Below are positions 36,238-37,436 of a DNA stretch of 64,000 nucleotides, piece by piece. Numbering within the stretch: position 1 is the first letter of the stretch; every line of letters begins with the position of its first letter. The DNA lies in contig CAKPJN010000001.1 in assembly GCA_934162665.1 (NCBI GenBank), positions 52,834 to 116,833 of the forward strand, read 5' to 3'. This DNA is from an uncultured Bacilli bacterium. Lineage in GTDB: Bacteria; Bacillota_I; Bacilli_A; RF39; UBA660. A program made the position numbers and the translations under genes. The notes beneath the pieces were generated by a model. The model was not told the DNA's origin. It made no database searches and saw only the letters and a program-made list of their open reading frames with translations.

Positions 36238-36822
36238 ATGAAAAGTGAAGAATTAATAAAACTTAGAGAAAATTATAATGAATTAATAAATGAGAGAAAT
36301 AAAATACTTGCATTGAAATCAAAAATAGAAGAATTAGAAAATAATTCTGTAGTAAAAGAATATTTAGCTACTATTGCAGAATATAAAACGAATAAAGCTA
36401 AGCATATTGATCCTATAGAACAAGAGGAAGATTCTTATTTTGTAAGAGTAGCAGTTAGTAGGACAGATATTACACCAAGAGATGATTATTATGTTTATAT
36501 GGGAACTTATAAATACACTCATGAAGTAGATATAGTTCATGCTCCACATGATATAAGAGTAAATAGAGATGATAAAGATGCTGATTATGTAGTCTATTCT
36601 AATTTAGAGGCTAGGACTCATAGCTTTGATGGAACTATTGAAATTCCTTACTCTAAAGCTGATGAGTTTGAATCTACTCATAAAATAATAGTTCCTAAAA
36701 ATGTAGTTAGTAGAGATTGCTATCTTTACGATCTACAGGAAGAATATTATGAAACTGCTATTTTAGAATCAGAAGAGAAGGCAATAGAAAAGGTTAATAG
36801 ATTAGTAAAGAAACATAAATAG
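36238..36822 (+). CDS. hypothetical protein (194 aa; N-terminal coiled coil) - island cargo gene A
   Basis: Strong RBS AGGAGGG 7 nt before ATG 36238; no family recognised. Confidence 0.5.
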   Translation: MKSEELIKLRENYNELINERNKILALKSKIEELENNSVVKEYLATIAEYKTNKAKHIDPIEQEEDSYFVRVAVSRTDITPRDDYYVYMGTYKYTHEVDIVHAPHDIRVNRDDKDADYVVYSNLEARTHSFDGTIEIPYSKADEFESTHKIIVPKNVVSRDCYLYDLQEEYYETAILESEEKAIEKVNRLVKKHK

Positions 36823-36848
36823 ATATTATATATGATGGAGTGAGTAGT

Positions 36849-37436
36849 ATGTTTGAGACAAAAGCATTTGAAAGTCAACTATTATATTCAGTTAGTTCAG
36901 ATTCATATGCTAATATTGATCATACATTAGATGAATGGATAAGATTTTTATCTTATGTTAAAACTGATGAAAAGAATTTTTTGAAGGAATTAAATAGTAG
37001 ATCATTATATCAGTTAACTACAGATGAAATTAAAAAGTATCTAAAGATTAAAGAACAAAAAACAATGACTGATTTGTTTATTAAGTATAAGAATAAAGAT
37101 TGCACTAAAAATGAGCATGATTGTGTATGTGAATATATGAGGAATTCTTTAGAAGATTTTATGAGAAGTAGATTAACTGAGGATGAATTGAATGAATCAT
37201 ATAAAACTTTAGCTATCTTTAGAGAAAAAGAAATACAAGAGTTAGAAGACTATATAAAAGATAAAATGAGTAATTATAATAATTTAACCCTTGTTGATGC
37301 ATACATTTTATATGAAGTTAGGGAAATTAGATATAATAAAAAGACTGATGAGATAAATAATAAGATTATAAATAAACAAAAGGTACAAGCCAAATTTTTA
37401 AGAAAAAGCTTAGTTAAAGACTATGGATTGAAATGA
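36849..37436 (+). CDS. hypothetical protein (196 aa) - island cargo gene B, co-operonic with A
   Basis: RBS GGAGTGAG before ATG 36849; 26-nt gap after gene A; no family recognised. Confidence 0.5.
   Translation: MFETKAFESQLLYSVSSDSYANIDHTLDEWIRFLSYVKTDEKNFLKELNSRSLYQLTTDEIKKYLKIKEQKTMTDLFIKYKNKDCTKNEHDCVCEYMRNSLEDFMRSRLTEDELNESYKTLAIFREKEIQELEDYIKDKMSNYNNLTLVDAYILYEVREIRYNKKTDEINNKIINKQKVQAKFLRKSLVKDYGLK

Follow-up and report, generated by a model that had tools for sequence, protein, structure and literature searches.

The locus described here raises the question of what two small adjacent genes, ORF1 and ORF2, are doing beside a decayed recombinase gene in an uncultured Bacilli bacterium: do they form a defence or toxin–antitoxin module carried by a mobile element, as a first-pass annotation of the DNA had suggested, or are they ordinary genes? 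They lie at positions 36,238 to 37,436 of the window, the whole 64,000-nucleotide (nt) stretch of contig CAKPJN010000001.1 that was analyzed, the DNA of which was identical to a Hadza-gut scaffold in ENA. Both are genuine genes and not chance open reading frames (ORFs), since they have homologous clusters, invariant alignment positions, ratios of nonsynonymous to synonymous substitution rates (dN/dS) below 1 and confident AlphaFold models. Together they make up a self-contained unit of ~1.6 kb, here called the cassette, behind an upstream terminator and a sigma-A-type promoter-like site of its own. This descriptive account of the cassette can be given with high confidence. As the evidence stands, ORF1 and ORF2 are an ordinary conserved hypothetical pair whose signs of accessory DNA are suggestive yet indirect.

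Architecture and protein families of the cassette

The cassette and its control sites comprised the following features.

36033..37596, + strand: conserved cassette block spanning the promoter region, both ORFs and the truncated 5′ end of a third gene, c15; ~91% DNA identity to the UMGS995 species, with unrelated flanks; junctions read from alignments.
35990..36021, + strand: probable intrinsic terminator of an upstream gene of 90 amino acids (aa); 9-bp stem followed by a U7 run; RNA fold of −8.3 kcal/mol, z = −2.4.
36153..36181, + strand: sigma-A-type promoter-like site; TTGTTA, 17 nt and a TG-extended TATAAT; 10 of 12 matches, TG present.
36238..36822, + strand: ORF1; 194 aa, soluble and acidic, with a coiled-coil hairpin and an alpha/beta domain; large orphan family.
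36849..37436, + strand: ORF2; 195 aa, soluble and all-helical; small, fast-evolving orphan family.

ORF1 runs from an ATG at 36238 to a TAG at 36820–36822 and ORF2 from an ATG at 36849 to a TGA at 37434–37436, both in the same orientation and separated by a spacer of 26 nt (36823–36848). The lengths of 194 and 196 aa given in the first-pass annotation were right for ORF1, as were the positions and the gap, but ORF2 has 195 aa, its stop having been counted as a codon. The strong ribosome-binding sites noted there were found before both genes, AGGAGGG at 36224–36230 with a spacer of 7 nt before ORF1, and GGAGTGAG at 36837–36844 with a spacer of 4 nt before ORF2. One promoter-like site lies upstream of the pair, and no convincing terminator was detected between or after the genes; from the shared orientation, the spacing and this single site, ORF1 and ORF2 are predicted to be co-transcribed. 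The number of promoter-like sites in this AT-rich region was not above that in shuffled sequences, and the promoter call rests on conservation. The −10 box (TGTGATATAATG) was identical in the closest relatives (L013, L016, and L019), while TATAAT occurred 25–65 nt upstream in most of the 27 ORF1 homologues examined and took the form TGnTATAAT in nine. The terminator at 35990..36021 was not flagged by the terminator scan, its stem having fewer than three G–C pairs, and an Rfam scan of 34900–39400 found no RNA family.

The AlphaFold2 model of ORF1 (mean pLDDT 80.7) opened with an antiparallel helical (coiled-coil) hairpin at residues 3–54, in agreement with the N-terminal coiled coil that had been read from the translation, and continued into a C-terminal alpha/beta domain. 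That of ORF2 (mean pLDDT 86.5) had eight helices, with a basic C-terminal helix of 45 residues. Calculated isoelectric points (pI) were 5.2 for ORF1 and 6.8 for ORF2, and tyrosine made up 8.2 and 7.2% of residues, against a background of 5.4%. Both proteins were hydrophilic, with no transmembrane segment or signal peptide. They were rejected as paralogues of each other, having no BLAST similarity and different secondary structure. Across ~110 divergent members of the ORF1 family, Y42, Y120, E124, F144, E145, and A182 were at least 94% conserved, G89 88% and A115 84%, a pattern of mostly aromatic, glycine and alanine residues plus two glutamates that looks structural rather than catalytic. A PD-(D/E)xK nuclease fold was considered for the C-terminal domain of ORF1 and rejected, since the conserved D…(D/E)xK motif was not found on the central strands. 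In ORF2, the Cys/His-bearing segment KNEHDCVCEY that had drawn attention earlier is present at residues 87–96, but it does not hold up as a conserved metal site: residues C85 and E89 were invariant and D91 nearly so, whereas H90 alternated with Y, and homologues had S, I, Q, R or K at C92 and Y, I, V or L at C94.

Neither protein had a match in Pfam, NCBIfam, PHROGs or PADLOC. The same four collections returned nothing above threshold for 104 members of the ORF1 family and 22 of the ORF2 family, where stray sub-threshold hits were to SUKH_6 (E = 0.27), Com_YlbF (5 of the 104) and DUF1451 (6 of the 22). A sequence-profile search of the PDB with both proteins found nothing, and Foldseek comparison of the two models with the PDB gave a best E of at least 1.5, with no informative fold neighbour. 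None of the sources of the protein collection gives a name to a member of either family. The earlier view that no described family fits was thus upheld by Pfam, NCBIfam, PHROGs, PADLOC, PDB and Foldseek alike, and ORF1 and ORF2 are soluble cytoplasmic proteins from two unrelated orphan families.

When 1.84 billion cluster representatives were searched by profile (E ≤ 0.001), the ORF1 family came to 404 clusters at 50% identity, nearly all of 180–195 aa and matching end to end. At 90% identity the homologues of ORF1 formed 62 clusters; those of ORF2 came to ~50 clusters. The ORF2 family was small and tight, with all members at or above ~40% identity except for one relative at 28%. Genome matches were all to uncultured gut metagenome-assembled genomes, labelled Bacilli, Tenericutes, Mollicutes or Firmicutes, and to Clostridium sp. 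CAG:762, and both families appear to be confined to a clade of uncultured low-GC gut Bacilli. Two protein families have thereby been defined that are missing from Pfam, NCBIfam, PHROGs, PADLOC and the PDB, and that of ORF1 is a candidate for registration as a new domain of unknown function, particular to an abundant uncultured gut lineage. The novelty lies in the families themselves and not in a demonstrated new mechanism.

Conservation, probable exchange and variability

Comparative analysis revealed ORF2 directly 3′ of ORF1 in four lineages. These were the window species, the UMGS995 species (L013, L016–L019, and L055–L059), the species of L010–L012, in which ORF1 and ORF2 were 43 and 51% identical to the window proteins, and L026, with an ORF2 28% identical to that of the window. 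Gene order was constant in the paired loci and spacing ranged from 5 to ~110 nt. Outside the window species, the pair is thus found in three species-level lineages, closely spaced and with its order kept, but it is not obligate, and the frequent separation of the two genes makes an obligate two-component system, such as a toxin–antitoxin pair, unlikely. ORF2 adjoined ORF1 in four of eight lineages and occurred without it in the other four (L049/50, L051/52, L053/54, and L061). In L049/50 the lone ORF2 followed a membrane protein gene and preceded RelA_SpoT-like and SocA_Panacea genes, and in L049 genes for a tyrosine integrase, ArdC and a HEPN protein also came after it; in L061 it followed a GNAT acetyltransferase gene (203 aa). 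The RelA_SpoT-like and SocA_Panacea genes (L049 8050–9409, L050 6827–8204) resemble a toxSAS–Panacea toxin–antitoxin pair. Genes of 238, 139 and 203 aa upstream of lone ORF2 copies were tried as divergent ORF1 homologues and rejected by hidden Markov model, the last being the acetyltransferase; neighbours of 195 and 194 aa in other loci were likewise rejected as ORF2 homologues. ORF1 is a conserved, widespread component, usually alone with its own promoter, and ORF2 is an optional, fast-evolving add-on.

At the DNA level, blastn of the window against three loci of the UMGS995 species (L019, L055, and L017) gave 91.2–91.6% identity over 1577–1604 nt. This similarity was limited to 36033–~37600 and included the non-coding upstream region; the only other DNA match between window and UMGS995 species was 247 nt at 73%, and the adjoining LysM and peptidoglycan (PG)-binding proteins were 47–48% identical. 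In the UMGS995 species the cassette is framed by spoIVFB and a LysM cluster; in the window it occupies the lepB–ylqF interval. These alignments make it likely that the cassette was transferred laterally between the two organisms.

Strains of the UMGS995 species had flanking proteins that were 97–100% identical, yet ORF2 was only 82% identical between two allele types, ORF1 93–96% and c15 85–98%, and a HAD gene was present or absent. Between ORF2 alleles of intact three-gene loci in this species, the synonymous rate (dS) was 0.30 and dN/dS 0.32, compared with 0.02–0.17 and 0.05–0.13 for the flanking genes. For ORF1, dS was 0.05–0.43 and dN/dS 0.16–0.46 (about 0.25), and for ORF2 dN/dS was 0.32–0.65; over ORF1, ORF2, and c15 together dN/dS spanned 0.16–0.65. 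Likewise, in a species pair with a PG-binding neighbour 81% identical, ORF1 was only 50% identical. The locus behaves as accessory, recombining DNA and is a clean example of a within-species hypervariable hot spot. Two UMGS995 loci held further genes of their own. In L059, a second, highly divergent ORF1 paralogue (28% identity; 3206–3769) stood in tandem directly upstream of ORF1–ORF2. In L013, a different serine recombinase, broken into a 146-aa Resolvase and a 101-aa Recombinase fragment (971–1837), headed a strain-specific island ~6 kb upstream of ORF1, with genes for KilA-N (PADLOC PDC-S22), CutA1, a 520-aa HTH protein and NUDIX.

Remains of recombinase elements around the cassette

The surroundings of the cassette in the window held the following features.

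35322..35481, + strand: remnant A, the 3′ end (52 codons and stop) of a second large serine recombinase gene, DUF4368-type; recognized by a 163-nt direct repeat and a translation match.
35679..35951, + strand: 90-aa ORF outside the conserved cassette, on the left side of the homology boundary (36033); annotated with 87 aa in public contigs.
37506..37673, + strand: chimeric 55-aa ORF, ~30 codons of c15 joined to recombinase sequence in the same frame; closed by an in-frame TAA (37671–37673).
37596..38974, + strand: recombinase B pseudogene, 5′-truncated; Recombinase, Zn_ribbon_recom and DUF4368 domains (Pfam).
39018..39191, + strand: 174-nt recombinase-flanking repeat with a palindrome; second copy at 41168–41341 (77% identity), partial copy at 35556–35619.
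39277..40287, + strand: YhcG/DUF1016 PD-(D/E)xK nuclease gene, the nearest intact downstream neighbour; Pfam E = 7e-64 and 2e-37, PADLOC PDC-S02 E = 8e-132.

The cassette sits among the remains of at least two recombinase elements. That the ORFs lie directly next to a decayed recombinase had been seen in the first-pass annotation; to this can be added that the 55-aa ORF is chimeric and that a second remnant lies upstream. The direct repeat relates 35317–35479 to 38811–38973 at 79% identity, and the translation of remnant A (IKKIDRLLIDELVEDIV…NKYDIIKTI) was 69% identical to the C-terminus of the downstream recombinase; the remnant is unannotated and falls in a 613-bp gap between a SpoIID-like gene and the 90-aa ORF. 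Recombinase B is missing ~90 N-terminal residues, among them the catalytic serine region, and an intact 521-aa homologue aligned only from residue 93 (tblastn). Its frame, continuous over 37674–38621, is interrupted by a stop codon at 37671 and shifts near 38620. At least 23 contigs of the species carry the pseudogene as a fixed feature, and in some it has decayed further. The 90-aa ORF, with no match in Pfam, PHROGs or PADLOC, was present in every contig of the window species.

In the UMGS995 sister species, ORF2 is followed by c15, a gene of 147 aa. Residues 1–29/30 of c15 matched 37506–37592/37595 of the window at 86–97% identity (tblastn), the DNA alignment between window and sister diverged after ~37594, and recombinase sequence began at ~37596, with positions 62–86 of the Resolvase profile matching residues 30–54 of the 55-aa ORF. 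The cassette formerly continued into this third gene, which is cut at ~codon 30. Since the start of c15 is fused to recombinase residue ~90 in the 55-aa ORF, a single deletion removed both most of c15 and the catalytic N-terminus of the recombinase.

The two full copies of the 174-nt repeat share an exact 27-nt core at 39096 and 41246, where none is expected by chance, and can form a hairpin of −14.9 kcal/mol (z = −1.65). They bracket the YhcG gene and a metallophosphoesterase gene, each copy lying just downstream of an actual or former recombinase 3′ end, and may represent an att-like sequence, a terminator or flanking DNA that belongs with the recombinase. A search for an att pair around 36033–37596 found only repeated flank sequences; deletions have removed the junctions.

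All of these features belong to an island of ~9.8 kb, from a LysM gene to a methyltransferase gene, that splits rimM-trmD-rplS-lepB from ylqF-rnhB-topA (borders at lepB, 32096–32608, and ylqF, 42463–43323). The cassette is therefore linked to recombinase remnants inside an insertion that interrupts conserved synteny, and the same 91%-identical cassette occupies different genomic sites in two species, while its arrangement was fixed in at least 23 contigs of the window species. The proposal of mobile-element cargo holds insofar as two decayed recombinases flank the cassette within an island; however, the cassette of the sister species has no adjoining recombinase, and so it is not strictly cargo of the window recombinase. 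It is best seen as a mobile or recombining unit, and the locus illustrates the step-by-step erosion of serine-recombinase elements.

Other parts of the window and of the homologous loci showed further features, including possible insertions. Between trmD and rplS (30000–31530), a 145-aa ORF that matched no family and a gene for a membrane acyltransferase (Acyl_transf_3) had a GC content of 17–20%, against ~25–30% around them, which suggests another insertion in the rimM-trmD-rplS cluster. In L001–L005 and L021 (~1848–4860), an intact 521-aa large serine recombinase gene and a 218-aa gene immediately precede a penicillin-binding protein gene fragment (198 C-terminal aa, with Transpeptidase and PASTA domains), which is followed by mraY and ftsW/spoVE; the arrangement may represent a skin-like intervening element within a spoVD-like pbp gene. 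As ordinary features, the window also carries a T-box leader (57488–57657) upstream of a gene at 57696, and two transfer RNA clusters at 34–768 and 6854–7006 (Lys, Ile, Asn, Glu, Ser; Cys, Gly).

Candidate functions and known systems

The immediate neighbours of ORF1 across species were led by YhcG nucleases (seven proteins), followed by polA and fpg (five each), with comEC, ftsW/glmS, trpS, obg and ruvX among the others. YhcG genes directly preceded ORF1 in L025, L027, L030, and L031. In L027 (7086–15147), and also in L025 and L029–L031, up to five YhcG/DUF1016 nuclease paralogues or fragments lie downstream of comEC; ORF1 begins 26–28 nt after the first copy and has its −10 box within the 3′ end of that YhcG gene. 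A DUF4143 ATPase (PADLOC PDC-S01) and KilA-N (PDC-S22) neighbour cassette genes in other genomes. PDC families are phage defence candidate genes of PADLOC, obtained by guilt-by-embedding (Payne et al., bioRxiv 10.1101/2024.01.29.577857). The evidence for a defence-island setting was mixed, with PDC-S02, PDC-S01, PDC-S22, and RelA_SpoT-like plus Panacea neighbours and the within-species hypervariability on one side and mostly housekeeping genes beside ORF1 on the other.

We tentatively read the cassette as an accessory conflict-type module, whether anti-phage, anti-mobile-element or of benefit to an element, and not as a toxin–antitoxin pair; this is a leaning that falls short of an even chance. 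ORF1 would be a non-enzymatic scaffold or sensor, with its coiled coil and alpha/beta domain, and ORF2, formerly together with c15, would supply exchangeable, diversifying partner subunits. The lean is due to the accessory behaviour of the locus, with its within-species hypervariability and raised dN/dS, and to the recurrence of PDC-S02, PDC-S01, PDC-S22, RelA_SpoT-like plus Panacea, integrase, ArdC and HEPN genes as neighbours; it is by location only that a defence or conflict role is suggested. A bolder version is unlikely, namely that ORF1–ORF2(–c15) is an unrecognized conflict or anti-phage system of low-GC gut Bacilli, with ORF1 as its core and ORF2 and c15 as diversifying specificity subunits swapped by recombination between strains and species. 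If the cassette is a defence or conflict module, it would represent a new system in a section of the gut microbiome where immunity is scarcely known.

Several results weigh against a conflict module. PADLOC-DB v2.0.0 returned no family for ORF1, ORF2, the 90-aa ORF, c15 or the other small neighbours, the PDC families are themselves untested candidates, and no effector-type domain or catalytic motif was found in ORF1 or ORF2. ORF1 had no adjoining ORF2 in 25 of 27 species-representative genomes, which speaks against a joint module, and the two genes do not co-vary, ORF2 alleles changing while ORF1 stays the same. Most neighbours of ORF1 were housekeeping genes, and one lone ORF2 (L051/52) stood in the housekeeping order truA-ORF2-LysM-rplM-rpsI. 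Homologues of ORF1 and ORF2 were absent from searches of IMG/VR, phage GenBank and PLSDB, and the apparent restriction to one lineage is more in keeping with vertical inheritance than with the broad lateral spread usual for defence genes. The cargo or defence idea of the first-pass annotation is no more than plausible, and is weakened by the frequent separation of the genes.

Much of this evidence would equally suit a different account, in which ORF1 and ORF2 are independent, lineage-specific cytoplasmic proteins with ordinary roles in regulation or in protein or nucleic-acid binding, their adjacency is often-broken synteny and the recombinases are incidental in a hot spot. Doubtful as it also is, this account is almost as likely as a conflict module because of the housekeeping contexts, the lineage restriction, the lack of an effector-like domain and the lack of co-variation between ORF1 and ORF2. 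It further agrees with how often each gene stands alone, with the arrangement fixed in the species contigs, with the missing phage and plasmid homologues and with the near-universal sigma-A −10 boxes, which suggest constitutive vegetative expression. However, order and tight spacing persist in four lineages at ORF1 identities down to 43%, hypervariability within a species and raised dN/dS are unusual for housekeeping genes, and the 91%-identical block is sharply bounded and lies in unrelated contexts. A narrower account concerns ORF2 of the window genome, which may be a decaying leftover of the deletion that destroyed c15, drifting neutrally while only ORF1 is maintained. Compatible with the other readings, it is improbable taken by itself. 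Relative to strain L069 of the window species, ORF2 had six changes in 585 nt, all nonsynonymous, a rate about the same as that of the adjacent recombinase pseudogene (12 changes in 1370 nt), and ORF1 had a single synonymous change in 582 nt. Between window and L055, ORF2 dN/dS was 0.63 (dS 0.13), compared with 0.32 between the intact three-gene loci, and the truncation of c15 points the same way. Nevertheless, ORF2 was intact, with no stop or frameshift, in all species contigs read, and the 6:0 split was not significantly different from neutrality or positive selection (estimated p about 0.2).

A role in sporulation or the cell envelope, for example as fast-evolving components like those of the spore coat, is quite improbable. 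Spore-coat proteins typically evolve rapidly, and LysM, SpoIID-like/PG-binding, polysaccharide deacetylase, SpoIVFA/B, and FtsW/SpoVE genes are recurrent neighbours: LysM or PG-binding genes adjoin ORF1 or ORF2 in the window, the UMGS995 species, L024, L049, and L051, and spoIVFB (M50) and an M23 peptidase gene lie upstream in L017. The raised tyrosine content of both proteins would also suit such a role. Yet both proteins lack a signal peptide and any transmembrane segment, and the majority of ORF1 contexts have no link to sporulation. The promoters that are conserved belong to the sigma-A type, in many cases with an extended −10, which indicates vegetative expression and argues against a sporulation-specific role. 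A sporulation (sigma-E-like CATAC) promoter upstream of ORF1, sought by eye only, was rejected, as the window box CATACTGT reads TATACTGT in the sister species. The least probable reading, and a very remote one, is that of a classical type II toxin–antitoxin or addiction module stabilizing the recombinase element. Two co-oriented genes 26 nt apart, with their own promoter and adjoining mobile-element remnants, are what such a module would look like, and one ORF2 homologue adjoins the RelA_SpoT-like and SocA_Panacea genes. Against it, each gene is commonly alone instead of co-occurring obligately with the other, both proteins (~195 aa) are larger than typical toxin–antitoxin proteins, and no toxin fold or domain or antitoxin DNA-binding domain (HTH, RHH or AbrB) was detected. 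Near-neutral drift of ORF2 beside a conserved ORF1 is also not expected of an addictive cognate pair. The toxin–antitoxin, abortive-infection or phage-defence reading of the first-pass annotation gains no support from these results, the pair being non-obligate, with no PADLOC match and no phage, plasmid or IMG/VR relatives.

Compared with known systems, the cassette has the outward form of type II toxin–antitoxin modules, as two adjacent co-oriented genes with a short spacer, their own promoter and mobile-element debris around them, but it differs in that ORF1 and ORF2 are frequently separated, lack a recognizable toxin or antitoxin fold and a DNA-binding domain, and do not co-vary. It also resembles the cargo or 'moron' cassettes of recombinases of the TnpX/TndX type, to which the window recombinases are presumably related in architecture. 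Like these, it is a small self-promoted cassette between recombinase genes of Resolvase, Recombinase, Zn_ribbon_recom and DUF4368 architecture, in an island that splits a conserved housekeeping cluster and has repeated flank sequences; here, however, both recombinases are dead, the island is fixed in the species, and the sister cassette has no recombinase. The ORF1 protein, with a hairpin of ~55 residues followed by a small alpha/beta domain, an overall acidic character and semi-conserved acidic residues (ELE, 32–34) at the hairpin tip, recalls RNA-polymerase secondary-channel factors of the GreA/DksA type, a likeness of architecture. With regard to the PDC genes of PADLOC, ORF1 and ORF2 differ in matching no PADLOC model, in having most homologues among housekeeping genes and in not being embedded in BREX, DISARM or type I restriction–modification systems. 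They are like them in being compact genes of obscure mechanism that are flagged only by location, at a locus that is hypervariable within a species, and in several genomes the neighbours of the cassette are themselves PDC-S02 (YhcG), PDC-S01, and PDC-S22.

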